Assembly (NCBI GenBank): GCA_965225855.1
Contig: CBDDCK010000005.1
Span: 1,061,509-1,125,508, forward strand
DNA from: Spirochaetia bacterium
Lineage (GTDB): Bacteria; Spirochaetota; Spirochaetia; SP-2023
Direction: 5' to 3'
DNA: 64,000 bases
Shown: positions 3,350 to 35,513 of the stretch, one piece after another
Position numbering within the stretch: the first letter of the stretch is position 1
Layout: every line of letters begins with the position of its first letter
Notes under the pieces: generated by a model
Told to the model about the DNA's origin: nothing
The model's database searches: none
The model's input: the letters and a program-made list of their open reading frames with translations, nothing else
Made by a program: the position numbers and the translations under genes

Positions 3350-3740
3350 AAATCCAAGTTAAAAATTATGGTGAAAAGTGGCGAGAATATTTTGGGTAAA
3401 ACTATTTAAAAAAGCTGCTTTGGCCCATTTGGATTCTACTGTTTTTTCTTATACAAATATTTATTTCCAAACTATTTATGCTCAGAGTGTCCCTATTTGA
3501 AAAAATATACTATTACCAAAATTTATTTTAAGGGCGGAGCAGGATTAAATCGCTATTATATATTTTCTTTTTTAGGGTTTGAAGAAGGTAATACTTTTAT
3601 CCCAAGTTACCCCAAGCGAGCTAAACCAAAAACTCAAAGATAGTCGCTGGCTTTTGCGTAGCCAATGGTATTGGTATTTTCGGTATTTTCAAGCAGATTT
3701 TGAAACGCGTTAGTATCCTGAAGGCCGAGTAGAAATTTTT

Positions 3741-4526
3741 GTGCTACTAGAGTCTAGCTCTAAACGTTTCGGTTCTAAGTCCGATGAACATTCGTTTCTC
3801 TGGTTTCACCGGCAGACGCAATCCCTTGCAGTGCATTTCGCTTCCAAGTGGGCAAAATTACCAGGCCTATCTTGGTATTTTCCGCGCATTGATAATAGCT
3901 TTTTTGGTACAAATATTGTGATAGTGGAAGTCCAAACCCAAAAATTTTTAGAACGTTTCAACTTAGATGAGTTGGGGCTTACGGTATTTTGGCTGCGTGG
4001 TGGTGCCGAAGAATTTATCCAAACAAGCCCAGTGGTTAAGTTGGGCCTTTCCCAAAAATATTGGTTGATTTTGGACTTAGATGGTTTTGGTTTGATTTTT
4101 GATTTTATTATTGGGGCTTTTGTCGATTTAGATGGATTGTATTTATTGAAGAGCCGACTTTGGGCTATGAAATTTGGGTTGCAATTTGATGTTGGGGTTA
4201 TTGCTGGTTTATTTTTGTTACAAAGCAAATATAGGCTGTTACTGCGCCCCAGCCCTTGGTTGGAACTCTCTTTATTGAGCAACATTATAAGTAGCTTAAA
4301 TATTGGAAGTCTTAACTCTGAAATATCTAGTATAAACTTAGAGGATAATGATGTAGATTTTTATGCCTTAGGCCGTTTTAGAACCACTTCTCAACTTTCG
4401 CAAAACGATTATGACAACCGCACCGAATTTAATGTTGGGTTGGAAGGTAAATTGGGCCTTTCTGCTGGTTTGTTCAATAATTCAAGTTTATCTTTGAGTT
4501 TCTCCGCTTTTTTAGCAACATTGTAA
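3741..4526 (+). CDS. Hypothetical protein; possibly the remnant of a beta-barrel outer-membrane protein gene
   Basis: GTG-initiated 261-aa ORF with alternating hydrophobic beta-strand-like stretches (WAMKFGLQFDVGVIAGLF, FNVGLEGKLGLSAGLF). The 3368-3740 region upstream reads like the same kind of protein but is broken by stops. Its 3' end overlaps the effector gene on the opposite strand by 118 nt. Weak call. Confidence 0.25.
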   Translation: MLLESSSKRFGSKSDEHSFLWFHRQTQSLAVHFASKWAKLPGLSWYFPRIDNSFFGTNIVIVEVQTQKFLERFNLDELGLTVFWLRGGAEEFIQTSPVVKLGLSQKYWLILDLDGFGLIFDFIIGAFVDLDGLYLLKSRLWAMKFGLQFDVGVIAGLFLLQSKYRLLLRPSPWLELSLLSNIISSLNIGSLNSEISSINLEDNDVDFYALGRFRTTSQLSQNDYDNRTEFNVGLEGKLGLSAGLFNNSSLSLSFSAFLATL

Positions 4527-12781: not shown

Positions 12782-12810
12782 AGTATAGTTATTTCATTTG
12801 TCAAGCTCAA
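12782..12810 (-). promoter_or_regulatory. Candidate sigma70 promoter for cas12a, between the last repeat and the start codon
   Basis: Minus strand reads TTGAGC (12810-12805), 17 nt, TATACT (12787-12782), then AGGAG 5 nt before the ATG at 12764. Sequence pattern only. Confidence 0.4.
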
Positions 12811-12831: not shown

Positions 12832-15800
12832 ATCTACAACAGTAGAAATTAAATAGTGTCCTTAGACTCTTCTTCTCTGCTGTATATTTTTTTGTAAAAT
12901 CTACAACAGTAGAAATTAAATAGTGTCCTTAGACCAAACCACCCAAACATTCAACCCTTCAATCTACAACAGTAGAAATTAAATAGTGTCCTTAGACTTA
13001 CTCAACATCCTAGTCTGCTACAATCTACAACAGTAGAAATTAAATAGTGTCCTTAGACTCTTCTTCTCTGCTGTATATTTTTTTGTAAAATCTACAACAG
13101 TAGAAATTAAATAGTGTCCTTAGACCAAACCACCCAAACATTCAACCCTTCAATCTACAACAGTAGAAATTAAATAGTGTCCTTAGACTTACTCAACATC
13201 CTAGTCTGCTACAATCTACAACAGTAGAAATTAAATAGTGTCCTTAGACTCTTCTTCTCTGCTGTATATTTTTTTGTAAAATCTACAACAGTAGAAATTA
13301 AATAGTGTCCTTAGACCAACGAAGCCCTAGCCGAAGCCAACGATCTACAACAGTAGAAATTAAATAGTGTCCTTAGACTATGATATGGACAGAAGAAGAT
13401 GATGATATCTACAACAGTAGAAATTAAATAGTGTCCTTAGACGAATAACAACGGCGAGATCGCCGTAATCTACAACAGTAGAAATTAAATAGTGTCCTTA
13501 GACGAAAATAGCTAAGGGAATAGCTATAGAGATCTACAACAGTAGAAATTAAATAGTGTCCTTAGACAGCCCTATGGTGATTGCTACAGGCCTATCTACA
13601 ACAGTAGAAATTAAATAGTGTCCTTAGACAGCCCTATGGTGATTGCTACAGGCCTATCTACAACAGTAGAAATTAAATAGTGTCCTTAGACAAAATAGCA
13701 AACGATGCCGTGGTCGCAATCTACAACAGTAGAAATTAAATAGTGTCCTTAGACACGTTAATTTGCCCGATTATTGTAAAAATCTACAACAGTAGAAATT
13801 AAATAGTGTCCTTAGACACCGTATAATGCAATTGCATGATTGATTATCTACAACAGTAGAAATTAAATAGTGTCCTTAGACACCGTATAATGCAATTGCA
13901 TGATTGATTATCTACAACAGTAGAAATTAAATAGTGTCCTTAGACCATATTGCCACTCAAAAACAATTTTAACTATCTACAACAGTAGAAATTAAATAGT
14001 GTCCTTAGACAGTCTATTGTTCGTCTGTCTTGGAGGGAATCTACAACAGTAGAAATTAAATAGTGTCCTTAGACCACTCCTCCAGCACACACACTCCTCC
14101 AGATCTACAACAGTAGAAATTAAATAGTGTCCTTAGACGGATTCATAGTCAGCCTCAAAATGGGATCTACAACAGTAGAAATTAAATAGTGTCCTTAGAC
14201 AATGAAATCTTCCCATTGATCCCATAAATCTACAACAGTAGAAATTAAATAGTGTCCTTAGACGCCAACAGCAATAAAATAGCAATGTTCATCTACAACA
14301 GTAGAAATTAAATAGTGTCCTTAGACCCTGTGTATCTTGGTGAAGATTATTCATCTACAACAGTAGAAATTAAATAGTGTCCTTAGACGCGTTTTATCCG
14401 TGTAGGAATCTACAATCTACAACAGTAGAAATTAAATAGTGTCCTTAGACAACTCATCCCAGCGACCCTGATAGCCATCTACAACAGTAGAAATTAAATA
14501 GTGTCCTTAGACAATACTCATTATAAATAAGGTTATACGCTATCTACAACAGTAGAAATTAAATAGTGTCCTTAGACTGTATCTGTATAGACAATCTAAG
14601 GTCAATCTACAACAGTAGAAATTAAATAGTGTCCTTAGACTCTATATTCATCCCAACGTCCTTGATAACATCTACAACAGTAGAAATTAAATAGTGTCCT
14701 TAGACATGTCAATTACCATAATCCCTTTAGTATCTACAACAGTAGAAATTAAATAGTGTCCTTAGACCAAATGCAGTGCTCTTTTTTTTTTAATCTACAA
14801 CAGTAGAAATTAAATAGTGTCCTTAGACTCTGGATGAACACATACGAACTAGTTATCTACAACAGTAGAAATTAAATAGTGTCCTTAGACACTGTTGCAC
14901 AAGGCCTCCCAATTTTATCTACAACAGTAGAAATTAAATAGTGTCCTTAGACATGTCTAATGAAATAAAACAATACAATATCTACAACAGTAGAAATTAA
15001 ATAGTGTCCTTAGACCGGTTGTATAGCTTTGCATTGGGCAGCCATCTACAACAGTAGAAATTAAATAGTGTCCTTAGACCCCTAAGCATAAGAGCACTAT
15101 TCAATACTATCTACAACAGTAGAAATTAAATAGTGTCCTTAGACTTACGCCATTACATTGGGCCGCGCGCAAATCTACAACAGTAGAAATTAAATAGTGT
15201 CCTTAGACATTATCTTAATATATCCAAGGGGCTATAATCTACAACAGTAGAAATTAAATAGTGTCCTTAGACACAGCCCCATCTAGGAAATCCATTTAAT
15301 CTACAACAGTAGAAATTAAATAGTGTCCTTAGACAACAGATTCAAAAATCCCTTTTTATCTATCTACAACAGTAGAAATTAAATAGTGTCCTTAGACATC
15401 GGGCACGCCGTTTATTACCAATTATCTACAACAGTAGAAATTAAATAGTGTCCTTAGACGGAAAATGAATAAGTTTGCTTGTACTTAATCTACAACAGTA
15501 GAAATTAAATAGTGTCCTTAGACGGAAAATGAATAAGTTTGCTTGTACTTAATCTACAACAGTAGAAATTAAATAGTGTCCTTAGACATGGCAGGCGCAG
15601 AAGGAGACGCCCGTATCTACAACAGTAGAAATTAAATAGTGTCCTTAGACATTTTTATCCTATACCCGCAGCAGTAACAATCTACAACAGTAGAAATTAA
15701 ATAGTGTCCTTAGACCTTCAATCTGTTCTTCCATATACCACCTATCTACAACAGTAGAAATTAAATAGTGTCCTTAGACTGTCGTGATATTTACTACCAG

Positions 15801-18800
15801 ATACCATCTACAACAGTAGAAATTAAATAGTGTCCTTAGACACAACATTTATTCTATAAATACAACCTAATCTACAACAGTAGAAATTAAATAGTGTCCT
15901 TAGACAAATACAGCCGATAATATGAATATATAATCTACAACAGTAGAAATTAAATAGTGTCCTTAGACGAGATATCGTTGTTGCCACGAGAACGATCTAC
16001 AACAGTAGAAATTAAATAGTGTCCTTAGACAATTCGGTTACTGGAAACTTGGACACATCTACAACAGTAGAAATTAAATAGTGTCCTTAGACCGTAAAAC
16101 TGGAAACTTAGAAATTCAGGACATCTACAACAGTAGAAATTAAATAGTGTCCTTAGACAGAACAAGAATTAAACCTAGTGCGCAATCTACAACAGTAGAA
16201 ATTAAATAGTGTCCTTAGACCAATAGTGAACAATTCAAGCCACCTATTATCTACAACAGTAGAAATTAAATAGTGTCCTTAGACTTTACAAGTTTGCAAG
16301 CAGCACCACAAATCTACAACAGTAGAAATTAAATAGTGTCCTTAGACCCCACGATAGGGTAAAATAGCTACCAATCTACAACAGTAGAAATTAAATAGTG
16401 TCCTTAGACATTGATGTTGTAAGATAGAACTATTGCCATATCTACAACAGTAGAAATTAAATAGTGTCCTTAGACTTTAAAAGAAAACAATTGAATTGAT
16501 CCTATCTACAACAGTAGAAATTAAATAGTGTCCTTAGACAATGTTTAGTTTGTCAATTTCGTTGTGATCTACAACAGTAGAAATTAAATAGTGTCCTTAG
16601 ACCTTTTGATAAGGCCGAGGTGGCCCTATATCTACAACAGTAGAAATTAAATAGTGTCCTTAGACCATAAAATCGGGGGCTTAAAACCAATAATCTACAA
16701 CAGTAGAAATTAAATAGTGTCCTTAGACCTTCATATGCTGCGCAGTGCAAGGGTGATCTACAACAGTAGAAATTAAATAGTGTCCTTAGACCTTCATATG
16801 CTGCGCAGTGCAAGGGTGATCTACAACAGTAGAAATTAAATAGTGTCCTTAGACCTTCATATGCTGCGCAGTGCAAGGGTGATCTACAACAGTAGAAATT
16901 AAATAGTGTCCTTAGACCTGCTAATAGCAGCTGGGGCCGATCCATCTACAACAGTAGAAATTAAATAGTGTCCTTAGACCTGCTAATAGCAGCTGGGGCC
17001 GATCCATCTACAACAGTAGAAATTAAATAGTGTCCTTAGACCCCTTGCACTGGGCAGCCGATGAAGAATCTACAACAGTAGAAATTAAATAGTGTCCTTA
17101 GACCTTAGCCTCATATGGAGGCCATAAAATCTACAACAGTAGAAATTAAATAGTGTCCTTAGACATAAAATCGGGGACTTAAAACCAATAATCTACAACA
17201 GTAGAAATTAAATAGTGTCCTTAGACACATCCTTGCTAAAGCTACTGACCATAAATCTACAACAGTAGAAATTAAATAGTGTCCTTAGACCATGAATGGT
17301 ATGTTTTATAATTGTTAATCTACAACAGTAGAAATTAAATAGTGTCCTTAGACTTTTGTTGCTGTTAATCCTGACTCCTATCTACAACAGTAGAAATTAA
17401 ATAGTGTCCTTAGACCTTGGCCTTTACATCGGCCAATTACATCTACAACAGTAGAAATTAAATAGTGTCCTTAGACAAAATATACAGGTTTATATCGTAT
17501 CCATCTACAACAGTAGAAATTAAATAGTGTCCTTAGACCTTGGCCTTTACATCGGCCAATTACATCTACAACAGTAGAAATTAAATAGTGTCCTTAGACG
17601 ACGCAATATCCTGCATCTAGCAGCGAATCTACAACAGTAGAAATTAAATAGTGTCCTTAGACAGGGCTAAAGGTGTGGCCGAAGCTAAATCTACAACAGT
17701 AGAAATTAAATAGTGTCCTTAGACCAACGCCAATCCCTAGCAATCCACCCACATCTACAACAGTAGAAATTAAATAGTGTCCTTAGACTACAAAGGAATA
17801 GAATACGCTTCGTATCTACAACAGTAGAAATTAAATAGTGTCCTTAGACGCCATAACTAAAAGAAAAAAAGTACAAATCTACAACAGTAGAAATTAAATA
17901 GTGTCCTTAGACCAAATCATTTTTAACTTTAACCTCCATATCTACAACAGTAGAAATTAAATAGTGTCCTTAGACGTACGGTCAATAAACAAACCCCTAA
18001 TTGATCTACAACAGTAGAAATTAAATAGTGTCCTTAGACCAGCAAACCAGCACCGAGCGTAATAAAAATCTACAACAGTAGAAATTAAATAGTGTCCTTA
18101 GACTCCACAACAGTTTTTTCTTCCACTTCGGATCTACAACAGTAGAAATTAAATAGTGTCCTTAGACTTATGAAAAATATAAAGGAAAGCTTGAAAATCT
18201 ACAACAGTAGAAATTAAATAGTGTCCTTAGACCCTATAAGGGTATGCTACCGTGTAATAAATCTACAACAGTAGAAATTAAATAGTGTCCTTAGACCTTG
18301 CTAAGGCAGTCTGCAACCCCCGTATCTACAACAGTAGAAATTAAATAGTGTCCTTAGACCAAATATGGTAACATAAATAATATCTGATCTACAACAGTAG
18401 AAATTAAATAGTGTCCTTAGACTTAGCAGAAGATCAAGAATTGCGTGAAATCTACAACAGTAGAAATTAAATAGTGTCCTTAGACTTCTGTTCAGCGTAG
18501 GGTTACTGATCTATCTACAACAGTAGAAATTAAATAGTGTCCTTAGACCTTGTTTATAACTCATTCCTATTTCGTTATCTACAACAGTAGAAATTAAATA
18601 GTGTCCTTAGACCGTTGGTGGCTAAGTCTAGCCGTTTTAATCTACAACAGTAGAAATTAAATAGTGTCCTTAGACCACTGTTGCAAAGTGCCTCCCAATT
18701 TTATCTACAACAGTAGAAATTAAATAGTGTCCTTAGACAGTTTATCGTAAGGTTTTCTTATTTTATATCTACAACAGTAGAAATTAAATAGTGTCCTTAG

Positions 18801-21800
18801 ACAGCAGCAGGATCGCGGATTATTTAAATCATCTACAACAGTAGAAATTAAATAGTGTCCTTAGACTTATCTATAGCCTTATCCAAAGATACAATCTACA
18901 ACAGTAGAAATTAAATAGTGTCCTTAGACAGGCAAACCATATCTTTTACCTATATCATCTACAACAGTAGAAATTAAATAGTGTCCTTAGACAGCACCAA
19001 TTAACGCTCCAATACCTGCATCTACAACAGTAGAAATTAAATAGTGTCCTTAGACAAAACAAAATGATGATTTTAACTTTGAATCTACAACAGTAGAAAT
19101 TAAATAGTGTCCTTAGACTTTGCATCCTTCAAAATCAAGGTCTCATCTACAACAGTAGAAATTAAATAGTGTCCTTAGACGTTGGATCGCCTAAATATTG
19201 GGCTGCATCTACAACAGTAGAAATTAAATAGTGTCCTTAGACTTTGCATCCTTCAAAATCAAGGTCTCATCTACAACAGTAGAAATTAAATAGTGTCCTT
19301 AGACGTTGGATCGCCTAAATATTGGGCTGCATCTACAACAGTAGAAATTAAATAGTGTCCTTAGACGATGCAATAACAGAAGCCAAAGCATTATCTACAA
19401 CAGTAGAAATTAAATAGTGTCCTTAGACGTGGCAGATTTTATGAAGTTCTTACAATCTACAACAGTAGAAATTAAATAGTGTCCTTAGACCTACTATGAT
19501 ACACCAACAACCGAAACAATCTACAACAGTAGAAATTAAATAGTGTCCTTAGACCCCAATTCACCAGCAAAACACAAACATCTACAACAGTAGAAATTAA
19601 ATAGTGTCCTTAGACGCCCATGATCTTTTATTGATTAAGAATAATCTACAACAGTAGAAATTAAATAGTGTCCTTAGACTATAAGCATAAGCAGCAGACG
19701 CTGCCAATCTACAACAGTAGAAATTAAATAGTGTCCTTAGACTTCTGGGGAACCAGTAATCCAATTTGTATCTACAACAGTAGAAATTAAATAGTGTCCT
19801 TAGACGCACCTTAGTAAAACCACGTTTGTTGTTATCTACAACAGTAGAAATTAAATAGTGTCCTTAGACTAAAAAAGACTGTACACCTTTGCACTATCTA
19901 CAACAGTAGAAATTAAATAGTGTCCTTAGACTTTATTCCTCCTTCTTGTTTCGCATCAATCTACAACAGTAGAAATTAAATAGTGTCCTTAGACTTGCAC
20001 GCAACAAAAACAGGGCAAAGCTATCTACAACAGTAGAAATTAAATAGTGTCCTTAGACATTTACAGCGATAAAGTAAAGTTACATGATCTACAACAGTAG
20101 AAATTAAATAGTGTCCTTAGACAACAAAGTGAAACAAGCCATAAAAAAGTATCTACAACAGTAGAAATTAAATAGTGTCCTTAGACATGGATGATATTAT
20201 TCTTCTTTCTATATCTACAACAGTAGAAATTAAATAGTGTCCTTAGACATGGATGATATTATTCTTCTTTCTATATCTACAACAGTAGAAATTAAATAGT
20301 GTCCTTAGACGTGCTTATATCAACGGCGCAGATTATATCTACAACAGTAGAAATTAAATAGTGTCCTTAGACTCGAAAGCGCACGAAAAAGCCAAGAAAT
20401 CTACAACAGTAGAAATTAAATAGTGTCCTTAGACACGCTCTACAGGTTATCAATGCTTTTGAATCTACAACAGTAGAAATTAAATAGTGTCCTTAGACTA
20501 CCTCACTATAAAACCACGGAATACATCTACAACAGTAGAAATTAAATAGTGTCCTTAGACATTTACAGCGATAAAGTAAAGTTACATGATCTACAACAGT
20601 AGAAATTAAATAGTGTCCTTAGACACGCTCTACAGGTTATCAATGCTTTTGAATCTACAACAGTAGAAATTAAATAGTGTCCTTAGACCTGCAAAATCCC
20701 ATAATTTAGATCATAATCTACAACAGTAGAAATTAAATAGTGTCCTTAGACAGTCGAGAAATCCGGTTTCAGACTGATCTACAACAGTAGAAATTAAATA
20801 GTGTCCTTAGACTTAATCTAAATAACCAAAAGAAACCGAATCTACAACAGTAGAAATTAAATAGTGTCCTTAGACGTACCTATTAGTACAAATACTTATA
20901 TAATCTACAACAGTAGAAATTAAATAGTGTCCTTAGACTTTTGTTATTTTTTATTTAAGTTTTAAATCTACAACAGTAGAAATTAAATAGTGTCCTTAGA
21001 CCTTTGCTATTTCTTCGCCTTGAGGTTGAATCTACAACAGTAGAAATTAAATAGTGTCCTTAGACTTTAACTGTAGAAGAAATAATAGAAGAAATCTACA
21101 ACAGTAGAAATTAAATAGTGTCCTTAGACGAACAAATTAAAAAAGTTTTTAAGGAATCTACAACAGTAGAAATTAAATAGTGTCCTTAGACTTCCCACTT
21201 AGTAAAAAAACAAGTAAATCTACAACAGTAGAAATTAAATAGTGTCCTTAGACCGTCTGATCCTTTAATTGATGCATTTTATCTACAACAGTAGAAATTA
21301 AATAGTGTCCTTAGACTTTTCTTTATCAAGATTAAATAAATCGATCTACAACAGTAGAAATTAAATAGTGTCCTTAGACAAGCTAAGCACGCACAGCTCA
21401 ATAAACATCTACAACAGTAGAAATTAAATAGTGTCCTTAGACTTTACCATATAAACCTAGCGATGTCATAATCTACAACAGTAGAAATTAAATAGTGTCC
21501 TTAGACAAACATTGTTCCAAGGCCAAAGCCAAATCTACAACAGTAGAAATTAAATAGTGTCCTTAGACAAACTTGGTATTGATTCCGGTCTTTTATCTAC
21601 AACAGTAGAAATTAAATAGTGTCCTTAGACGATTTGCGGATTGGCGAAAAAGGCTTTATCTACAACAGTAGAAATTAAATAGTGTCCTTAGACTTTGTGG
21701 GTCTGGTGTAGAAATTAATTATCTACAACAGTAGAAATTAAATAGTGTCCTTAGACGTCGAGGCAGCTGGGTACCTTATCGAATCTACAACAGTAGAAAT

Positions 21801-24800
21801 TAAATAGTGTCCTTAGACCACTTAAATATAAAGTGGCCCGCAGAATCTACAACAGTAGAAATTAAATAGTGTCCTTAGACGCCAAAAACCTACCTTACAT
21901 AGCAAAAATCTACAACAGTAGAAATTAAATAGTGTCCTTAGACCGCAATAGCCGTATTTTTTTATGATGCATCTACAACAGTAGAAATTAAATAGTGTCC
22001 TTAGACATGGGTTTGTTCGTTGTGGGGTTTTTCATCTACAACAGTAGAAATTAAATAGTGTCCTTAGACAAATCTCTTGGTGTTAGTCATTCCAAATCTA
22101 CAACAGTAGAAATTAAATAGTGTCCTTAGACAAACAACAGATTTAACACCACAAGAAATCTACAACAGTAGAAATTAAATAGTGTCCTTAGACAAAAGCA
22201 GCAGAAATCTCTGTAGAAAATCTACAACAGTAGAAATTAAATAGTGTCCTTAGACTTGTGCGCCTGTTTCGCTGGGATTTGATCTACAACAGTAGAAATT
22301 AAATAGTGTCCTTAGACCCAAAACAGCAGCGTGGAGCGTTGCTGATCTACAACAGTAGAAATTAAATAGTGTCCTTAGACCAAGTTAAGAAATTATTGAT
22401 GCAAGGAATCTACAACAGTAGAAATTAAATAGTGTCCTTAGACTTAATCAGTCTAGTTGAAAAATCTATATCTACAACAGTAGAAATTAAATAGTGTCCT
22501 TAGACTTAATCAGTCTAGTTGAAAAATCTATATCTACAACAGTAGAAATTAAATAGTGTCCTTAGACCGCTAATTGCCCTGTAAGCTGGGCGTTGATCTA
22601 CAACAGTAGAAATTAAATAGTGTCCTTAGACAGTTTATGTTAAATCTGCCGATAATTATCTACAACAGTAGAAATTAAATAGTGTCCTTAGACCCGTTTA
22701 TTAATTCTTTATCAGAAGATATCTACAACAGTAGAAATTAAATAGTGTCCTTAGACCCGTTTATTAATTCTTTATCAGAAGATATCTACAACAGTAGAAA
22801 TTAAATAGTGTCCTTAGACAGTTTATGTTAAATCTGCCGATAATTATCTACAACAGTAGAAATTAAATAGTGTCCTTAGACAAAACAGGGAAAAGCTGAA
22901 ACCCCTAATCTACAACAGTAGAAATTAAATAGTGTCCTTAGACATTGACGCCTTTAGTTTCAAAATCCTATCTACAACAGTAGAAATTAAATAGTGTCCT
23001 TAGACAAACTATGAAAGAAATCCACTTTTAATCTACAACAGTAGAAATTAAATAGTGTCCTTAGACAGTGGTTTAAAGTTTGCATTTGAACGATCTACAA
23101 CAGTAGAAATTAAATAGTGTCCTTAGACCGAAACAAGACTGAAACAAAAACTGAAAATCTACAACAGTAGAAATTAAATAGTGTCCTTAGACCGCAGCAA
23201 CCAATAGATTGGTCGCACAATCTACAACAGTAGAAATTAAATAGTGTCCTTAGACCACTTGGCAAAAACACCAAGAGCATTAATCTACAACAGTAGAAAT
23301 TAAATAGTGTCCTTAGACCTTGATGGCAATAATGCTGAGCGACAGCATCTACAACAGTAGAAATTAAATAGTGTCCTTAGACCTTGATGGCAATAATGCT
23401 GAGCGACAGCATCTACAACAGTAGAAATTAAATAGTGTCCTTAGACCAACCTTGTGGTCAAGATCGATCATGTATCTACAACAGTAGAAATTAAATAGTG
23501 TCCTTAGACGCGTAAAATTTCATCTGATCAGACTTAATCTACAACAGTAGAAATTAAATAGTGTCCTTAGACTTATTTTCGTTTAGCAAAAAAAAGGAAT
23601 CTACAACAGTAGAAATTAAATAGTGTCCTTAGACCTTTGCCTGAAGCCCAAGAACATTTTATCTACAACAGTAGAAATTAAATAGTGTCCTTAGACTTCG
23701 TATTTTACGGCAATCATAGTAAGATCTACAACAGTAGAAATTAAATAGTGTCCTTAGACTTCTAAGATCATTAGGTTTGAGCACAAATCTACAACAGTAG
23801 AAATTAAATAGTGTCCTTAGACAAAAAAAAGGGAAGCACCGCCTCCCAATCTACAACAGTAGAAATTAAATAGTGTCCTTAGACTGCTGGGTCTCGCTAT
23901 ACAGAGTTCCTATCTACAACAGTAGAAATTAAATAGTGTCCTTAGACTATAAAGGATATAAAGAATAGATATAAATCTACAACAGTAGAAATTAAATAGT
24001 GTCCTTAGACTATAAAGGATATAAAGAATAGATATAAATCTACAACAGTAGAAATTAAATAGTGTCCTTAGACTATAAAGGATATAAAGAATAGATATAA
24101 ATCTACAACAGTAGAAATTAAATAGTGTCCTTAGACAGAGCTTTTGTCAATTGAATTATCAAATCTACAACAGTAGAAATTAAATAGTGTCCTTAGACAT
24201 TTTCAAGCCCGATATGGCTTAGAATCTACAACAGTAGAAATTAAATAGTGTCCTTAGACATAGTTGGTACCACAAATAAAGCAATATCTACAACAGTAGA
24301 AATTAAATAGTGTCCTTAGACCGAGACGCCCTTGCACAGGGCAGAGCGCAACGGCATCTACAACAGTAGAAATTAAATAGTGTCCTTAGACTTACAAAGG
24401 GAAAATACAAAAAACAGAAATCTACAACAGTAGAAATTAAATAGTGTCCTTAGACAGAGAAAGATGGGAGTCTGACAAACTAAATCTACAACAGTAGAAA
24501 TTAAATAGTGTCCTTAGACTCCAGCTGCTAGAGGCAGCTGGGGCTTAATCTACAACAGTAGAAATTAAATAGTGTCCTTAGACCACTGTGCTGCCCATAA
24601 AGGTTATACTATCTACAACAGTAGAAATTAAATAGTGTCCTTAGACTTCCTTGTTTACTCGTTATACAGATTATATCTACAACAGTAGAAATTAAATAGT
24701 GTCCTTAGACCTACAATGCAAGCATTGTAATCGGTATGATCTACAACAGTAGAAATTAAATAGTGTCCTTAGACCTACAATGCAAGCATTGTAATCGGTA

Positions 24801-27800
24801 TGATCTACAACAGTAGAAATTAAATAGTGTCCTTAGACTGCAAAACCACAAAAGCCATTGTTGACATCTACAACAGTAGAAATTAAATAGTGTCCTTAGA
24901 CGCTCTACTGTTAAATTAAACGAAATAGATCTACAACAGTAGAAATTAAATAGTGTCCTTAGACAGATCAGAAGTCAAAGAAACAGGATCAATCTACAAC
25001 AGTAGAAATTAAATAGTGTCCTTAGACACGGTTTAGAACCAGTTACGGAAATATCTACAACAGTAGAAATTAAATAGTGTCCTTAGACAAAAATCGAGCC
25101 GACATCACCGAACAAATCTACAACAGTAGAAATTAAATAGTGTCCTTAGACTCCAAGACTGATTGAACCCACTGAATATCTACAACAGTAGAAATTAAAT
25201 AGTGTCCTTAGACAGGAGTCTATTATGGACAAACTATTCATCTACAACAGTAGAAATTAAATAGTGTCCTTAGACAAACCGCCATGGTCCAGCTGCTCTT
25301 GATCTACAACAGTAGAAATTAAATAGTGTCCTTAGACAGAAAGATCAACGGAAAAATTCTCAGATCTACAACAGTAGAAATTAAATAGTGTCCTTAGACC
25401 CAATAATGCTAGATGACAGGTTCTTGCTATCTACAACAGTAGAAATTAAATAGTGTCCTTAGACCCAATAATGCTAGATGACAGGTTCTTGCTATCTACA
25501 ACAGTAGAAATTAAATAGTGTCCTTAGACTCAATATCTAAATAATGCCGCAAAAGCGATCTACAACAGTAGAAATTAAATAGTGTCCTTAGACCAGTAAA
25601 ATTGCCAAGACGACCGCCAGATCTACAACAGTAGAAATTAAATAGTGTCCTTAGACTTTTTTGGTATTCCAATACCTGAAACTATCTACAACAGTAGAAA
25701 TTAAATAGTGTCCTTAGACACGAATTGGCAGCGGCAAGCAGATCGTCATCTACAACAGTAGAAATTAAATAGTGTCCTTAGACTTTGGTTTTACCCCGTG
25801 GCTGGTCTTATATCTACAACAGTAGAAATTAAATAGTGTCCTTAGACTTCTCTGTGATTCTAACTGTTATTTATCTACAACAGTAGAAATTAAATAGTGT
25901 CCTTAGACTTAAAGATATAGAAGTTTTAGATCGACTAATCTACAACAGTAGAAATTAAATAGTGTCCTTAGACCACAATCAAACGCTTAAACAAAATAAT
26001 CTACAACAGTAGAAATTAAATAGTGTCCTTAGACCTCAGTACCTCTCATAAGACCAGTAACAATCTACAACAGTAGAAATTAAATAGTGTCCTTAGACAC
26101 GATTGCCTTTGGTATCGGCACATCTTATCTACAACAGTAGAAATTAAATAGTGTCCTTAGACCACAATCAAACGCTTAAACAAAATAATCTACAACAGTA
26201 GAAATTAAATAGTGTCCTTAGACATTAGGGTAGTTGAGTAGGTAGAAAAGATCTACAACAGTAGAAATTAAATAGTGTCCTTAGACATTAGGGTAGTTGA
26301 GTAGGTAGAAAAGATCTACAACAGTAGAAATTAAATAGTGTCCTTAGACATCTTTCGCAAAATCCAAGTAATCCAATCTACAACAGTAGAAATTAAATAG
26401 TGTCCTTAGACATTGGGCTGCCTATAAAGGGCATACGATCTACAACAGTAGAAATTAAATAGTGTCCTTAGACCAAGAAAATCTTTCTTCAGTCGGAGTA
26501 ATCTACAACAGTAGAAATTAAATAGTGTCCTTAGACCTATTACTTCCCCATACACTCAACCTCATCTACAACAGTAGAAATTAAATAGTGTCCTTAGACG
26601 CCATAAGTAACAGAAAGACCAGACCTAATCTACAACAGTAGAAATTAAATAGTGTCCTTAGACTTTTTGGTATTCCAAATACCTGAAACTATCTACAACA
26701 GTAGAAATTAAATAGTGTCCTTAGACAACCAGATACAAATTAATCTAAACAAAATCTACAACAGTAGAAATTAAATAGTGTCCTTAGACAAAAAATCTAA
26801 ATATGGGAATTTTAAAAATCTACAACAGTAGAAATTAAATAGTGTCCTTAGACCTGCAAACATTAGCCATTTTTGACCAAAATCTACAACAGTAGAAATT
26901 AAATAGTGTCCTTAGACTATCCTTTTTTCAATATCTTTTATACATCTACAACAGTAGAAATTAAATAGTGTCCTTAGACAGCCAGCGCAAAATGCAAATT
27001 TTTATATCTACAACAGTAGAAATTAAATAGTGTCCTTAGACGAGTACATTACCTCGGAAAAGCACAGCGATCTACAACAGTAGAAATTAAATAGTGTCCT
27101 TAGACTTTCTATATTTTTGCCTTAGCATTAATCTACAACAGTAGAAATTAAATAGTGTCCTTAGACGAGTACATTACCTCGGAAAAGCACAGCGATCTAC
27201 AACAGTAGAAATTAAATAGTGTCCTTAGACTTAAATAAGTGAGCAATTTTTCATCCGAATCTACAACAGTAGAAATTAAATAGTGTCCTTAGACTTTGTA
27301 GATGAAGCGCACCGAGGTAAATCTACAACAGTAGAAATTAAATAGTGTCCTTAGACTGCAAAAATATCTAAAAAAAGAACTCATATCTACAACAGTAGAA
27401 ATTAAATAGTGTCCTTAGACTGCTTCTGCTTCTGTCGTTGTATTTTTATCTACAACAGTAGAAATTAAATAGTGTCCTTAGACTAACACGACTACCTTTA
27501 AAAGTAATAATCTACAACAGTAGAAATTAAATAGTGTCCTTAGACGATAAAGATTAGATATTTATCCCATATATCTACAACAGTAGAAATTAAATAGTGT
27601 CCTTAGACTGCAAAAATATCTAAAAAAAGAACTCATATCTACAACAGTAGAAATTAAATAGTGTCCTTAGACATAATTCTTTTATTTTCCACCCCTAAAT
27701 CTACAACAGTAGAAATTAAATAGTGTCCTTAGACTTGTAACGGGTAAAGTTTTAAAGCACAAATCTACAACAGTAGAAATTAAATAGTGTCCTTAGACGG

Positions 27801-30800
27801 TATATTAGTACCTTGCACTACCAGATCTACAACAGTAGAAATTAAATAGTGTCCTTAGACTTTGTTAGCTGCACGCAATTCACCTGATCTACAACAGTAG
27901 AAATTAAATAGTGTCCTTAGACTCTCTTTGAGCATCCATTTTTTATTTGGATCTACAACAGTAGAAATTAAATAGTGTCCTTAGACTCTCTTTGAGCATC
28001 CATTTTTTATTTGGATCTACAACAGTAGAAATTAAATAGTGTCCTTAGACTCTCTTTGAGCATCCATTTTTTATTTGGATCTACAACAGTAGAAATTAAA
28101 TAGTGTCCTTAGACAGCAAGTTTCTCCGCTTGGGCTCTCAATCTACAACAGTAGAAATTAAATAGTGTCCTTAGACGTCTATCCACCACGCGGATTGATT
28201 GAACTCTTTGAGCATCCATTTTTTATTTGGATCTACAACAGTAGAAATTAAATAGTGTCCTTAGACAGCAAGTTTCTCCGCTTGGGCTCTCAATCTACAA
28301 CAGTAGAAATTAAATAGTGTCCTTAGACGAAATATATTGATATGTAACCACGACTATCTACAACAGTAGAAATTAAATAGTGTCCTTAGACTAGACCTAA
28401 ATTAATTGCATAATACAAGATCTACAACAGTAGAAATTAAATAGTGTCCTTAGACCCAGCTGCTAGAGGCAGCTGGGGCTTAATCTACAACAGTAGAAAT
28501 TAAATAGTGTCCTTAGACTAGACCTAAATTAATTGCATAATACAAGATCTACAACAGTAGAAATTAAATAGTGTCCTTAGACATAAGGCTAGATGACACC
28601 TTCTTTACTATCTACAACAGTAGAAATTAAATAGTGTCCTTAGACGAACAAGGATTAAATCCATTCAACAGGATCTACAACAGTAGAAATTAAATAGTGT
28701 CCTTAGACCCCGATATGGCTTAGATACAAAAGCTAGATCTACAACAGTAGAAATTAAATAGTGTCCTTAGACTACTTGACGAACCAACAGAAAAATAAAT
28801 CTACAACAGTAGAAATTAAATAGTGTCCTTAGACTTCAAATAGCAGCAGATAAGCAAATTGCATCTACAACAGTAGAAATTAAATAGTGTCCTTAGACCT
28901 ACAATGCAAGCATTGTAATCGGTATGATCTACAACAGTAGAAATTAAATAGTGTCCTTAGACTGTTAGGTGGAAAAGGAAGAGAGAAGGATCTACAACAG
29001 TAGAAATTAAATAGTGTCCTTAGACACCTCGAATATACAGACCCAAGCCCAATCTACAACAGTAGAAATTAAATAGTGTCCTTAGACAATCGACAATAAA
29101 GAAAAAAGGTAAAATCTACAACAGTAGAAATTAAATAGTGTCCTTAGACGTTAGCCGAATTGCAAAACGACTGAATATCTACAACAGTAGAAATTAAATA
29201 GTGTCCTTAGACATTGCAAGACGATGCTGTAAGTCAAAAATCTACAACAGTAGAAATTAAATAGTGTCCTTAGACATTGTTCAGCTTTATGAAGAAATTT
29301 TGAATCTACAACAGTAGAAATTAAATAGTGTCCTTAGACGCGAAAAGCCATAACCACGGGCAATTATCTACAACAGTAGAAATTAAATAGTGTCCTTAGA
29401 CTTCTATCATTATTGCGCCCTTGATGGATCTACAACAGTAGAAATTAAATAGTGTCCTTAGACCTTCTATTCAGAGGCGTGTTGCTGACCTATCTACAAC
29501 AGTAGAAATTAAATAGTGTCCTTAGACTGTCGCTCTATGGAAGTACCCTTCAATCTACAACAGTAGAAATTAAATAGTGTCCTTAGACACTGGAACTTAA
29601 CAAAGACGGACTTGATCTACAACAGTAGAAATTAAATAGTGTCCTTAGACAGCAATCTTAGAAAAAATGGATAGGGAATCTACAACAGTAGAAATTAAAT
29701 AGTGTCCTTAGACACCAAGCCTATTAAATCTATTGGTTGGATCTACAACAGTAGAAATTAAATAGTGTCCTTAGACAACGGTACACACTCTAATTCACGA
29801 GTGATCTACAACAGTAGAAATTAAATAGTGTCCTTAGACGTTAGATTTTGTGGACATAACTTTTTATCTACAACAGTAGAAATTAAATAGTGTCCTTAGA
29901 CCCCAGCTTTACTGCCAAGGATATTTTATCTACAACAGTAGAAATTAAATAGTGTCCTTAGACCCCAGCTTTACTGCCAAGGATATTTTATCTACAACAG
30001 TAGAAATTAAATAGTGTCCTTAGACCCCAGCTTTACTGCCAAGGATATTTTATCTACAACAGTAGAAATTAAATAGTGTCCTTAGACTGGCTATAACACT
30101 ATCCCCCACAAGAAAATCTACAACAGTAGAAATTAAATAGTGTCCTTAGACATTCTATCATGTTTTTAAGCGAAAATATCTACAACAGTAGAAATTAAAT
30201 AGTGTCCTTAGACTTAACCGTACAAGGTACTGACTTAAATCTACAACAGTAGAAATTAAATAGTGTCCTTAGACTATTACTTCTCCCTACACCCAACCTC
30301 TATCTACAACAGTAGAAATTAAATAGTGTCCTTAGACTAACTGTCTGCTCAATTTGTCTCCTACATCTACAACAGTAGAAATTAAATAGTGTCCTTAGAC
30401 AAGGTCGGTATCGAGACGATCGTGAAATCTACAACAGTAGAAATTAAATAGTGTCCTTAGACTTTCAGAGGTCTTACAGACTTCTGGTACATCTACAACA
30501 GTAGAAATTAAATAGTGTCCTTAGACTAATGTAAATGGTAATATAGATTATGAATCTACAACAGTAGAAATTAAATAGTGTCCTTAGACCTAGCGAAGAA
30601 ACAATCAAAGCTAGTCAATCTACAACAGTAGAAATTAAATAGTGTCCTTAGACCTAGCGAAGAAACAATCAAAGCTAGTCAATCTACAACAGTAGAAATT
30701 AAATAGTGTCCTTAGACTAGTAATATAACTTGCGGCGCTATCGAATCTACAACAGTAGAAATTAAATAGTGTCCTTAGACCCTGAATAAAATAGCTAGTA

Positions 30801-33176
30801 ACGCCGAATCTACAACAGTAGAAATTAAATAGTGTCCTTAGACCGTCCAACGATAACGGATATAACGAAACATCTACAACAGTAGAAATTAAATAGTGTC
30901 CTTAGACATCATATCAATAATTTATATTCTTTAATCTACAACAGTAGAAATTAAATAGTGTCCTTAGACATTGAACGGCAAGCAGGCCTAAATAGTATCT
31001 ACAACAGTAGAAATTAAATAGTGTCCTTAGACATTAAAAGATGTTACTTTTGGCCAAAGTATCTACAACAGTAGAAATTAAATAGTGTCCTTAGACCTAG
31101 CACTAGCACTAGCACACAAACAATCTACAACAGTAGAAATTAAATAGTGTCCTTAGACTATACTACGAGGGCAGTCCTTTGTTCCCATCTACAACAGTAG
31201 AAATTAAATAGTGTCCTTAGACTCCGTCACACAAGGAAAAAACGATAGATCTACAACAGTAGAAATTAAATAGTGTCCTTAGACCTCCGAAACCTTAACA
31301 CCAGCAGACTTGATCTACAACAGTAGAAATTAAATAGTGTCCTTAGACAACCTTCACACCCATTCTCTACAATCATCTACAACAGTAGAAATTAAATAGT
31401 GTCCTTAGACTATTGCCATAAATGCCGATACTATAAATCTACAACAGTAGAAATTAAATAGTGTCCTTAGACTTCTGTAGCCTTGGATAAGGCTGCTTTA
31501 TCTACAACAGTAGAAATTAAATAGTGTCCTTAGACCCTTTTAGGGTGCTTGGGGGACTGGTATAATCTACAACAGTAGAAATTAAATAGTGTCCTTAGAC
31601 ATAAATTGGAATTATAACATGCTATCTATCTACAACAGTAGAAATTAAATAGTGTCCTTAGACCAACCTGCCATCCTCACACAGCCCTAATCTACAACAG
31701 TAGAAATTAAATAGTGTCCTTAGACTCATAATCCTTATTAAATCTCTCTTTCTAATCTACAACAGTAGAAATTAAATAGTGTCCTTAGACTATATGGTTG
31801 CTATGAATAAACATACATATCTACAACAGTAGAAATTAAATAGTGTCCTTAGACCGAAAAGTTAAGTATGGAAGAACTAAAAATCTACAACAGTAGAAAT
31901 TAAATAGTGTCCTTAGACTTCTCGCCACCTGCAAGCAATTCAATATCTACAACAGTAGAAATTAAATAGTGTCCTTAGACATTCCCCGCAGTCTTATAAG
32001 CACTGCCATCTACAACAGTAGAAATTAAATAGTGTCCTTAGACATACCAATATAAAACCTAAAAACAACCATCTACAACAGTAGAAATTAAATAGTGTCC
32101 TTAGACGACCCAATGGGTGCTGGTGCTAGTATGCTATCTACAACAGTAGAAATTAAATAGTGTCCTTAGACAATGCACAATCTGCAGGAAAGATTTATCT
32201 ACAACAGTAGAAATTAAATAGTGTCCTTAGACAGGCTCAATATAAGAATCGTGTTCTGATCTACAACAGTAGAAATTAAATAGTGTCCTTAGACCTGAAA
32301 TTCCAGCAAGTGCCCGCAAGAGGATCTACAACAGTAGAAATTAAATAGTGTCCTTAGACTTGGCACCAGCTAAACTACTGGAAATATATCTACAACAGTA
32401 GAAATTAAATAGTGTCCTTAGACTAGAAAATATTGCTACTTCCGAGAGAATCTACAACAGTAGAAATTAAATAGTGTCCTTAGACATATCGGCTTTAGAT
32501 GTTGGCTTTGGATCTACAACAGTAGAAATTAAATAGTGTCCTTAGACTTTAATAATTTATGTAAAATAAAATTATATCTACAACAGTAGAAATTAAATAG
32601 TGTCCTTAGACAAAAAACAAACACCCGAACAGCTTGCATCTACAACAGTAGAAATTAAATAGTGTCCTTAGACAACCTAAGGAAACAAGGAAACCTAAGA
32701 TCTACAACAGTAGAAATTAAATAGTGTCCTTAGACACTAACACAAGCAAGCATAAACAGGATCTACAACAGTAGAAATTAAATAGTGTCCTTAGACAAGA
32801 AATTGAAAATATTCTAATCTTAAATCTACAACAGTAGAAATTAAATAGTGTCCTTAGACATATCGACAACTTAAGAAAACACTTAAGATCTACAACAGTA
32901 GAAATTAAATAGTGTCCTTAGACAGATAATTCGCTTTTGGATTCATCTATATCTACAACAGTAGAAATTAAATAGTGTCCTTAGACAAGTCTAAATAATA
33001 ATTTGCCAGATTTAATCTACAACAGTAGAAATTAAATAGTGTCCTTAGACAGTTTTTTGAAGACCTTTCTGGTACGATCTACAACAGTAGAAATTAAATA
33101 GTGTCCTTAGACTTGAAGGAATTGAGGAGGGATGATAATAATCTACAACAGTAGAAATTAAATAGTGTCCTTAGAC
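12832..33176 (-). CRISPR. Type V-A CRISPR array, about 323 repeats and about 322 spacers (20,345 bp)
   Basis: The 36-nt repeat is ATCTACAACAGTAGAAATTAAATAGTGTCCTTAGAC on the plus strand. Its minus-strand form is GTCTAAGGACACTATTTAATTTCTACTGTTGTAGAT, ending in the canonical Cas12a 5' handle AAUUUCUACUGUUGUAGAU, so crRNAs come from the minus strand. Spacers are 25-34 nt (mean about 27). First repeat 12832-12867, last repeat 33141-33176. Counted by a manual walk, so possibly off by a few. I saw no variant repeat. Confidence 0.98.
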
Positions 33177-33196
33177 TGTTCAATTTCACTCTCTTT

Positions 33197-33454
33197 TTAT
33201 CGATTTTTACTATCGTAGCGGTCGATTTTTCCGCATAGCCCATATTTTTCAGAATACGCAAAAATAGACTGGAACATCGATTTTGCTGTGCTGTATTTTT
33301 GCTTATCAATATTTATGTGAGCAGCCAGTCCTCTGCGCTGGGGCTCTTCATGATAGAAGTAGGTTGAGGTCTGTCCGTACAGTTGGTGAAAATAGAGCGA
33401 CCTAGGGCAAAACATAAAATCATTTAGATATGAAATGGGAATATAACTTTCCAA
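33197..33454 (-). pseudogene. cas4: cas4 N-terminal fragment (about 85 codons), truncated just before the first CRISPR repeat
   Basis: 'ISYLNDFMFCPRSLYFHQLYG' (Cas4 N-terminal Cys region) and '...YGLCGKIDRYD' (RecB-like motif II region), then a stop. The rest of the RecB nuclease core and the C-terminal Cys cluster are missing. The ORF ends 21 nt from repeat 33141-33176. TTG start. Confidence 0.7.
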
Positions 33455-33551
33455 AATAAAATTACCTTAGAATTTTTTAAAAAATATACTGTGAAACTAT
33501 TTTAGAAAAGCAACCAACCTGCGCTAAATTATCAAAGAACTTTTTATGTAC

Positions 33552-34067
33552 TCATACGAATAGAAAGAAAAGCAAACCGATTTTATGAATAAGAGAAAGG
33601 AGACGGCTTAAAGATTCTAACTGCTGCTCATATACATATTGCTTTATCATTTCCAATCCTCCCAAATCCATTATATAAGATGAAAATCCTGAAGATTTTG
33701 CCGTTAATTGTTTTAGATGTTCTTCAAACTTTTCCCATTCATTGTTCATTCTACCAGTATTTTGTTGCTCAAGTCCATAAGTTTTTAAAGCATGATAAGA
33801 TAAAGCAATGGTTTCGATATGAACAAAAAGGCAAAGAGGTAAGCTGTCTATTTTCTTATTATCAAAGTAATGCAACTCCCTTAGTAAGGGATATGTTCCT
33901 TTTCCAGCTGCAATTTTCTTTTTTTGCCTTTCTGCTAACTTCTTGTAGAGTTTATATAATTGTTTGTGGTCTAATGCTACAACCACACCACAAACAAAAG
34001 ATTTAAGCTTTTTATCAAAAAGGTCAAATTTACCAGTTTCATCAAGGCCTACATACCATGTTGTCAT
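33552..34067 (-). CDS. Hypothetical protein (171 aa) inside the CRISPR-Cas island
   Basis: ORF with low GC like the cas genes. The N-terminal 'WYVGLDETGKF' weakly recalls the DESG start of DUF3800 or RNase-H-like folds. No confident family assignment. Confidence 0.4.
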   Translation of the reverse strand: MTTWYVGLDETGKFDLFDKKLKSFVCGVVVALDHKQLYKLYKKLAERQKKKIAAGKGTYPLLRELHYFDNKKIDSLPLCLFVHIETIALSYHALKTYGLEQQNTGRMNNEWEKFEEHLKQLTAKSSGFSSYIMDLGGLEMIKQYVYEQQLESLSRLLSLIHKIGLLFFLFV

Positions 34068-34189
34068 TACAAAACCTGCCTAATTTTTTTAATATTGTAA
34101 AAAGTTAACCAAAATACTGATTTTTGATTTTTTGGCAACTTAGGTGATTATTGACCATATAAGTCTTATCATATCCAAATGATATAAAA

Positions 34190-34226
34190 ACCCAACAAAG
34201 TAGAAATAAAATATTGTCCTAAATTA
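34190..34226 (-). repeat. Orphan degenerate CRISPR repeat (pseudo-repeat)
   Basis: Plus strand CAACA-AA-GTAGAAAT-A-AAATA-T-TGTCCT aligns to repeat CAACA-GTAGAAAT-T-AAATA-G-TGTCCT. That is 24 matches, 2 mismatches and one 2-nt insertion. The hairpin part of the handle is disrupted. It lies 1,014 nt beyond the array end and abuts the fabF-like stop codon. Confidence 0.75.
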
Positions 34227-35513
34227 GGATTCAAAACGTTTGATTAACGAACAGCAGTTAATGCCACCGAAACCAAAAGAATTTTTGAGCATCAAATTGA
34301 TATGATGCTCTACGACTTTATTGGCACAAAGCTCTAATCCTTCAATTTCAGGGTCGGGATCATCAAGGTTGATAGTCGGGTGCAGCTTGCCGTATTGCAT
34401 GGACTTCAAAGCCCCAACAGTTTCCACCAAGGGGGAAGCCCAACAAGTATGCCCTAACATGGACTTAGGCGCATTGAGCTTAATGTTGGCAATATGTGGG
34501 CCAAACACATTTTTCAAAGCCAAGATTTCCTGTAAATCCCCCTCATAAGTACTGGTAGCATGGCAGTTGATATAATCAATTTGTTCGGGATCAACGCCGG
34601 CCATAGCCAAAGCTTTTTTTATTACATGTTCTTGATGTTTAGCACCGGGGAGCGGCAAATGATTGGCATTGGCGTTGGCAGCAACCCCCAGCAATTCACC
34701 ATAAATTTTGGCATTGCGTCTTTCAGCCCGCTCTAAAGTTTCCAAAACCAAAGTGGCCCCACCATGGGAATATAAAAAACCACAGCGGCCTTTATCAAAC
34801 GGACGCGATGCCCTAGCGGGTTGATTTTGATATTCAGGTTTTATCACCACCGCACTCAAAACAATGGAAGCTTGAATATCGGCTGGAGAAACATCAAAAG
34901 GAGGGCCTACCACTAAAGCTGTATCGCATTCGCCAGACATAATGTCGATATAGCCTTGACGCAAGGCCAAGTTACCACTGGCACAAGCACCACCTAAAGT
35001 AAACGAGGGCCCGTGCAAACCTAAAGTTTCTGAAATAATAGCAGGTAAATTGGGGTCAATCGCGTCAATACTGGAAAGCGGCTCAATAAAATCAGGGTCT
35101 TTCATAAAATTGCGATAATTTTCAAAAATGTAGTTTGAATTAAAATTGTGCCCAGCCACAGGTAAACTGACATTGCGCAAATCAAAAGGCGGTGTTTCAA
35201 AAAGTTTTGCATCTTCCCAAGCTTGCATGGTAGCAATCAAAGCCATTTTTGCCGAAAATGTAGTACCGCGGAACAGCTTGCGTACAGCCTTGAGTTTCTG
35301 GTCTTCAAAATATTGCCAAAATGGTTGCATCGCAGTAGCAGTATCAAAATAACCCATATCGCCACCAATTTGGCATTCGAGCGCGCTCATATCCAAACTT
35401 TGCCAGCGGTTTATACCGGATTTTCCCATCAAGAGATTTTGGTAAAATTCTTCTGAATTGGCACCCAAAGGGTTTACCGTGCCGATGCCTGTAATCACAA
35501 TTCGATTTTTCAT
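34224..35513 (-). CDS. Beta-ketoacyl-[ACP] synthase (KAS I/II family)
   Basis: Active-site 'GGACASGNLAL' (Cys), 'INCHATSTYEGD' (His), 'KSMLGHTCWAS' (His) and C-terminal 'NSFGFGGINCC'. Confidence 0.85.
   Translation of the reverse strand: MKNRIVITGIGTVNPLGANSEEFYQNLLMGKSGINRWQSLDMSALECQIGGDMGYFDTATAMQPFWQYFEDQKLKAVRKLFRGTTFSAKMALIATMQAWEDAKLFETPPFDLRNVSLPVAGHNFNSNYIFENYRNFMKDPDFIEPLSSIDAIDPNLPAIISETLGLHGPSFTLGGACASGNLALRQGYIDIMSGECDTALVVGPPFDVSPADIQASIVLSAVVIKPEYQNQPARASRPFDKGRCGFLYSHGGATLVLETLERAERRNAKIYGELLGVAANANANHLPLPGAKHQEHVIKKALAMAGVDPEQIDYINCHATSTYEGDLQEILALKNVFGPHIANIKLNAPKSMLGHTCWASPLVETVGALKSMQYGKLHPTINLDDPDPEIEGLELCANKVVEHHINLMLKNSFGFGGINCCSLIKRFES

Follow-up and report, generated by a model that had tools for sequence, protein, structure and literature searches.

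An 85-codon open reading frame (ORF) beside a type V-A CRISPR array in a Spirochaetia bacterium is probably the scar of a deletion: the 5' end of a cas4 gene, left where adaptation genes would once have stood. The locus lies in a 64-kb stretch, referred to here as the window, of the 2.03-Mb chromosome (2,033,073 bp) in assembly GCA_965225855.1 (contig CBDDCK010000005.1). Within the window, it occupies an island of low guanine-plus-cytosine (GC) content, ~24-34% as compared with ~40-46% in the flanks. Along the minus strand, a fabF-like gene comes first, followed by a lone degenerate repeat, an orphan gene (ORF171), the cas4 stub, 20 nt, the array, 67 nt, cas12a and a gene for a Cas12a3-like protein (Table 1).

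The stub was identified by comparison with protein families. TIGR04328 (cas4_PREFRAN, the NCBIfam model of type V Cas4) matched it with 86.8 bits against a cutoff of 70 (E = 1.7e-24), stub residues 7-85 aligning with profile positions 1-79 of 178, and the equivalent PADLOC model matched with E = 4.6e-25. Pfam gave no match to the stub at E<=0.01. Among 1.84 billion representative proteins scanned, 232 were relatives of the stub, and those of full length have 178-192 residues. When aligned to a custom Cas4 hidden Markov model (HMM) based on 31 full-length relatives, the stub covered positions 1-85 of about 187 and the alignment stopped at the stop codon; past that codon, both other frames scored negative. 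An earlier note on this stretch had taken the frame of about 85 codons for an N-terminal piece of Cas4, and the alternative, that it is unrelated to Cas4, was checked and not borne out.

The content of the stub was assessed from its motifs, start and profile score. It retains the N-terminal Fe-S cysteine (in FCPRS) and the metal-binding aspartate of GKID, whose counterparts in Francisella FnoCas4 are C16 and D78 (PMC13034035). The stop falls 7 residues past GKID; in the family, the ExK motif lies 10 residues past it. Also missing are QxxxY and the C-terminal CxxC...C cluster of a protein that would be ~180-190 residues at full length. Judged by these motifs, the stub is a gene fragment that could not be an active nuclease: it has lost ExK, the QxxxY region and, with the C-terminal cysteines, three of the four that bind the Fe-S cluster. 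Its N-terminus, (M)ESYIPISYLNDF, resembles that of the relatives, and a TTG start is normal in this clade. The stub scored 119.0 bits over 84 aligned positions, as compared with 120.6 +/- 13.6 bits in 40 relatives outside the model, and by this measure it carries no detectable decay. A truncation hotspot in cas4 after GKID was considered and rejected: homology ends were evenly spread over positions 40-110 in 139 relatives. Four short database matches do end at residues 79-86, but the length window of the search favours such fragments. In one related locus, L010, an intact cas4 between cas12a and cas1 (L010:11900-12460) was missed by the gene caller because, like the stub, it has a non-ATG start (LENYIPIS...).

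The handle of type V-A CRISPR RNA (crRNA) lies at the 3' end of the repeat and fixes the direction in which an array is read. On the minus strand, the repeat of the window is GTCTAAGGACACTATTTAATTTCTACTGTTGTAGAT, and its 3' end, AATTTCTACTGTTGTAGAT, folds into the 5-bp Cas12a handle hairpin (predicted UCUAC/GUAGA stem). An Rfam scan found nothing else, in line with an array type that has no trans-activating crRNA. Given the orientation of the handle, transcription of the array runs towards lower coordinates, which puts the stub on its leader side, upstream in transcription, as the earlier note had placed it. The distribution of duplicated spacers agrees with this polarity: spacers 1-39 from the leader side are all unique, and all 30 duplicated sets fall at positions 40-322. 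The last repeat, on the cas12a side, is perfect rather than degenerate, and the repeat retains both TCTA/TAGA ends. Searches for the origin of the spacers were negative within their scope. When 50,697 phage records were searched with the 8 kb of array nearest the leader side, all matches were to the repeat or were noise; the Logan contigs of the home sample included no protospacer contigs, and no spacer targets the window itself. The repeat had no match in assembled genome, metagenome and viral contig collections, nor did the stub in viral contigs. One 54-nt 'spacer' (28177-28230) consists of two fused spacers from between which the repeat is gone; its second half copies the adjoining triplicated spacer.

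Of the cas4-cas1-cas2 operon of a canonical V-A locus, the 64 kb hold the stub alone. A tblastn search of the window with the Cas1 and Cas2 proteins of three V-A relatives gave no match below E 0.1, the best matches falling inside the array as noise. Pfam annotation of the other long ORFs listed for the window likewise yielded no cas1 or cas2, the genes recognized being fab genes, UvrD, FolE, ArgJ, GalT, GalK, SecA, signal peptidases and surface-protein cassettes. Only 20-29 nt separate the cas4 homology from the first repeat, and the promoter-like sites farther upstream occur at chance frequency. Two further claims of the earlier note are supported: that the Cas4 fragment is the only trace of adaptation in the window, and that the rest of cas4, cas1 and cas2 are absent, as is a leader in so far as none was recognizable at the locus.

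The comparison with loci that retain cas4-cas1-cas2, proposed in that note, was made with five V-A loci that encode the closest Cas12a or Cas4 relatives (L001, L002, L003, L009 and L010). In each, cas12a comes first, followed by cas4 and cas1, L002 having extra genes between cas12a and cas4. A cas2 gene was called in L002, L003 and L009; L001 ends with an unannotated 89-residue ORF at the place of cas2, and L010 has no called cas2. The only relative read as far as its array, L003, has a 140-nt leader and then the array, on a noisy, low-coverage contig with several frameshifts. Because the relatives carry cas4-cas1-cas2, and L003 a leader as well, a deletion scar is the best reading of the stub in the window. 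In another locus (L004:982-1318; GCA_019826165.1, JAHMFL010004881.1), a cas4 stub ending ...GKIDVY is joined to the interior of cas1, the fused part, TKTEGNFLLREKQY, matching L002 Cas1 at ~residue 88. This scar, comparable to that of the window, is an independent internal deletion in a V-A adaptation operon.

The junction between the stub and the first repeat is real: it was not misassembled, since contigs from three runs cross it without a difference. Specifically, Logan contigs of runs X1, X2 and X3 (5.4-9.1 kb) extend from the repeat interior through the stub and ORF171 to fabF with 0 differences. These runs are from the same sample as the assembly and represent an independent assembler, not an independent sample. 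In X1-X3, apart from spacers, the repeat was flanked only by the sequences leading to the stub and to cas12a. The sample contigs showed no other array carrying the window repeat, a weak negative because contigs show presence better than absence. The earlier note gave 21 nt between the stop and the repeat; the adjacency holds and the distance measures 20 nt (33177-33196). Together with 33197-33206, these nucleotides form a 29-30-nt tail that is unique in the window, has a length within the spacer range and is missing from one minor variant contig of X3. The same note proposed a deletion joining the interior of cas4 to a repeat. The relatives make a deletion the simplest origin; the joint is not demonstrably direct, as 20-29 unassigned nt lie between. 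Two candidate descriptions of the junction were tried and set aside. A frameshifted cas4 continuing up to the repeat (KIDKKRVKLN in the +1 frame, by eye like LIERKKKI) is unproven, the profile score being negative and the alignments equal to those of shuffled sequences. The other was microhomology shared by the cas4 breakpoint with the repeat's 3' end, which did not exceed background in a scan for repeat-likeness.

Contigs from related organisms provided further comparisons. In X3, two low-depth contigs derive from a related organism. One, a minor 2x contig, matches 33207-33237 (GKIDRYDSK) and then continues with 192 nt of other sequence, which replace the tail and the repeat. The second is ~83-85% identical to the window over 33384-33544, with 4 synonymous changes among the 6 codons that differ and with its 6 indels confined to the sequence before the start codon. 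At the sequence level, this suggests that a co-sampled relative has a longer, constrained cas4 in the same intergenic context. Run X4, from another sample, contains a sister strain of the same species that is 98-99% identical in the fab genes and ~99% identical over 34140-34300. It has cas12a, the Cas12a3-like gene, the same array-cas12a junction and codons 1-71 of ORF171 (33855-34091). It also carries spacers absent from the window array; most spacers are missing from Logan contigs of the home sample too, making the absence of a spacer uninformative for the comparison with X4.

Two effectors are encoded at the locus. The Cas12a protein scored 1025.6 bits against TIGR04330 and contains the Pfam domains REC1, REC2, RuvC_1 and NUC, indicating that a RuvC-bearing effector is present. 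The best PDB matches of the second effector were Cas12a3 structures (21WE and 9HLX, E about 1e-52). At 1568 residues, the Cas12a is ~250 residues longer than typical relatives, and RuvC_1 (244 positions) is stretched across residues 1100-1552. Its nearest database relative shares 57% identity with it across 44% of the length, and a related-locus search of assembled genome contigs found no close relative of it. The closest Cas12a relative (L001:1682-6226) has an open frame only if TGA is read as Trp, and WYL and HIRAN genes lie 5' of it. Within the 67 nt that separate the cas12a ATG from the last repeat is a promoter-like TTGAGC-17-TATACT (12782-12810), a candidate cas12a promoter.

Based on these data, the history of the locus may be outlined as follows. 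An ancestral V-A island would have had cas4-cas1-cas2 and a leader directly upstream of the array, and an illegitimate deletion would have extended from about cas4 codon 86 to within 20-29 nt of a repeat. The remainder would be an interference-only locus, unable to add spacers on its own. Cas12a would cut guides from the precursor crRNA (pre-crRNA) at the repeat hairpin, and the neighbouring Cas12a3-like enzyme could use the same guides. With the leader gone, the pre-crRNA would come either from read-through that starts before ORF171 or from transcription starting at a cryptic promoter within the stub. Such a locus could still defend, as interference needs only Cas12a or the Cas12a3-like enzyme and a transcript. 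Because every repeat is perfect and the stub undecayed, the sequences point to recent loss or to adaptation supplied in trans, or else to selection on the stub. We infer the deletion itself, its recency and the source of the transcript. As the earlier note proposed, the array would then be frozen unless adaptation genes elsewhere act in trans; the negative result for cas1 and cas2 covers the 64-kb window.

Several observations weigh against this history in its simplest form. The order stub-array-cas12a-cas12a3, with ORF171 before cas4, was seen in no relative examined, and at least one further rearrangement is needed because this order is non-canonical. A single deletion is thus not the whole history, with cas12a and cas12a3 downstream, an orphan ORF and a stray repeat upstream of cas4, and no degeneration of the last repeat before cas12a. 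Neither is the joint itself demonstrable: nucleotide alignments of the 29-nt tail with cas4 of four relatives and of the X3 variant gave p of 0.2-0.9 against shuffles, and 33177-33206 could be the end of a leader, a spacer or decayed cas4. An undecayed stub would be expected under selective retention as well. Finally, X4 yielded no 31-mer from 33177-33854, and this segment may be strain-specific rather than a simple remnant; the X4 contigs are short and ~6x deep, and a chance gap of that length has a p of about 0.05 by a rough estimate.

It is possible but not probable that the array is still fed by Cas1-Cas2, Cas4 being either present or not, whose genes lie at another chromosomal site or on a mobile element, spacers being integrated at 33141-33176 and the stub being an inconsequential scar. 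This proposal leaves the deletion itself standing and questions no more than its consequence. In vitro, V-A integration in Francisella novicida needs the TCTA ends and <=3 nt of leader (PMC13034035). Because the window repeat has kept its TCTA ends, an integrase acting in trans could plausibly still use the array. Continued growth would also be in keeping with the 323 of 323 perfect repeats, the 39 unique leader-side spacers and the X4 spacers absent from the window, although the latter may be older than the deletion. Against it, neither a second array flank with the window repeat in the sample contigs nor cas1 or cas2 within 30 kb on either side was seen. The most specific version, in which an array with neither leader nor integrase of its own still grows through Cas1-Cas2 supplied by the chromosome, a mobile element or a co-resident relative and reading the repeat ends and a few flanking bases, seems distinctly unlikely. 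If true, it would show in nature how little leader a V-A array requires, and would explain 323 perfect repeats beside an undecayed scar.

A different origin of the stub, in place of the deletion, is unlikely: a fragment of ~0.7-1 kb that takes in some of ORF171, the gap between the two genes and the 5' part of cas4 could have entered by recombination with a related V-A element, or could be what a larger rearrangement left when it also moved cas12a-cas12a3 behind the array. The non-canonical gene order would fit either event, as would X4, with codons 1-71 of ORF171 and no k-mers from 33177-33854; its short contigs and low depth make that absence weak evidence. A ~83-85% identical variant of 33384-33544 also occurs in the same sample, and a role as targets of recombination has been proposed for standalone repeats at V-A borders (Shmakov et al. 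2023). The segment itself, however, is not bordered by a second copy, by an insertion sequence or by anything like the repeat, other repeat-like scores not rising above noise.

That the stub was kept for a function, as a promoter or 5' leader of the array or as an 85-residue peptide still binding Cas1 or DNA, is improbable. Its frame is intact, its profile score normal and its TTG preceded by a Shine-Dalgarno-like AAGG. The X3 variant, with 4 of 6 codon changes synonymous and all 6 indels before the start codon, suggests constraint, but this is equally expected if the cas4 of the variant is full-length. The promoter-like TTGATA-18-CAAAAT lies inside the stub, but such sites are no commoner than in shuffled sequence, and truncated relatives end anywhere between 40 and 110 with no preferred 85-residue form. 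An assembly artefact, by collapse or mis-join at the 20-kb array, is very hard to credit: long arrays of identical repeats do assemble poorly and most spacers are missing from the short-read contigs, but the contigs from three runs show 0 differences at the junction and no other leader-side flank was seen.

A deletion scar thus remains the preferred reading of the stub, and the sequences upstream of it bear on how the array might be transcribed. ORF171 has no family in Pfam, NCBIfam or PADLOC, no homologue among 5.8 billion proteins, and no similarity to Cas12a, Cas12a3 or the loci of the relatives; its AlphaFold model has a predicted local distance difference test (pLDDT) score of 47. Five promoter-like sites were found, as compared with 5.0 +/- 2.6 expected in shuffled sequence, and no terminator-like hairpin was found on the minus strand between the candidate promoters and the array. 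In X4, the region of window 34089-34139, upstream of ORF171, occurs in two forms, one lacking 51 nt that include the -35-like TTGCCA. The degenerate repeat, 1 kb upstream of the leader side of the array, had a local score of 20, shuffled sequences reaching 12-15, and the window has no other site of this kind; it is a better-than-chance match to the repeat and in this respect a standalone repeat unit (SRU). At the far border of the island, beside the 3' end of the Cas12a3-like gene, an X4 contig joins 3566 to 4487, with TACATAT (7 letters) in place of the 920 nt at 3567-4486. Contigs with a UvrD >=90% identical to that of the window (L007 and L008) are rearranged and lack the fabF side.

Table 1. 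Features of the V-A locus and its upstream border. Coordinates are those of the window.
Feature	Position	Strand	Description
Cas12a3-like second effector, 1202 aa	4409..8017	-	PADLOC and PDB matches
cas12a, 1568 aa	8058..12764	-	67 nt 3' of the last repeat
Type V-A CRISPR array	12832..33176	-	323 identical 36-nt repeats; 322 spacers, 286 unique
Leader-side (first transcribed) repeat	33141..33176	-	Array end nearest the stub
Junction sequence	33177..33196	-	20 nt from the TAA stop to the first repeat
cas4 stub	33197..33454	-	85 codons and TAA (33197-33199); TTG start; family positions 1-85 of about 187
Promoter-like site TTGATA-18-CAAAAT	33309->33280	-	Inside the stub
Intergenic, ORF171 to stub start, 97 nt	33455..33551	-	AAGG Shine-Dalgarno-like motif ~12 nt before TTG
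ORF171, orphan gene 5' of the stub	33552..34067	-	No family match, homologue or confident fold
Promoter-like site TTGCCA-16-TATTTT	34138->34111	-	Upstream of ORF171; candidate start for ORF171-stub-array read-through
Standalone degenerate repeat	34194..34220	-	Array orientation; 24/27 positions and one gap; hairpin broken; beside the fabF stop
fabF-like host gene	34224..35513	-	Border of the low-GC island; Pfam

Loss of adaptation modules from CRISPR loci is common. In the window, the event would have been caught early, with an undecayed stub, identical repeats and a sharply defined breakpoint, and the orphaned V-A array is unusually long (322 spacers) and would serve both Cas12a and a Cas12a3-like enzyme. 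Should cas1-cas2 prove to be missing from the whole genome, the locus would be a dated fossil record of infections and a natural test of the lifetime of interference-only memory. If acquisition continues, it would bear on the minimal leader requirement of V-A integrases.

One close point of reference is F. novicida U112, whose locus has the order cas12a-cas4-cas1-cas2-leader-array and shares with the window a 36-nt repeat, the 3' handle AATTTCTACTGTTGTAGAT, the TCTA ends and Cas12a. Its cas4 belongs to the same TIGR04328 family as the stub and is also annotated with a TTG start (PMC13034035). Unlike U112, the window has a cas4 cut at codon 85, no cas1, cas2 or recognizable leader, an array upstream of cas12a, a second effector and 322 spacers. 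The cas4 of U112 is naturally inactive due to a nonsense codon at position 6, and acquisition proceeds with normal efficiency but without selection for the protospacer-adjacent motif (PMC13034035). Both are wild V-A loci with a dead cas4, although U112 retains cas1-cas2 and the window has neither.

Cas12a3 loci likewise have a Cas12a3-like gene beside a Cas12a-type array (Dmytrenko et al., Nature 2026, PMC12851939). According to that study, cas1, cas2 and cas4 accompany most of the orthologues of Cas12a3 and Cas12a4 that it describes (PMC12851939); the Cas12a3-like locus of the window, with no cas1, cas2 or intact cas4, differs from most of these. About half of V-A loci have an SRU at their upstream edge, and it has been suggested that these units are targets of recombination (Shmakov et al. 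2023, bioRxiv 10.1101/2023.03.03.530964). The degenerate repeat of the window resembles them in that it is not part of the array and marks the locus's upstream edge, and differs in being upstream of ORF171 rather than of cas12a. Finally, in adaptation-less or truncated CRISPR-Cas loci (Bernheim et al. 2019, PMC7145637), effector and array were likewise left after deletion of the adaptation operon, with a gene stump still visible. In the window, the scar is the 5' end of cas4 and the array has no decayed repeat. The locus is another example of this known form of decay, notable for its large, pristine array and for the two effectors that share it.

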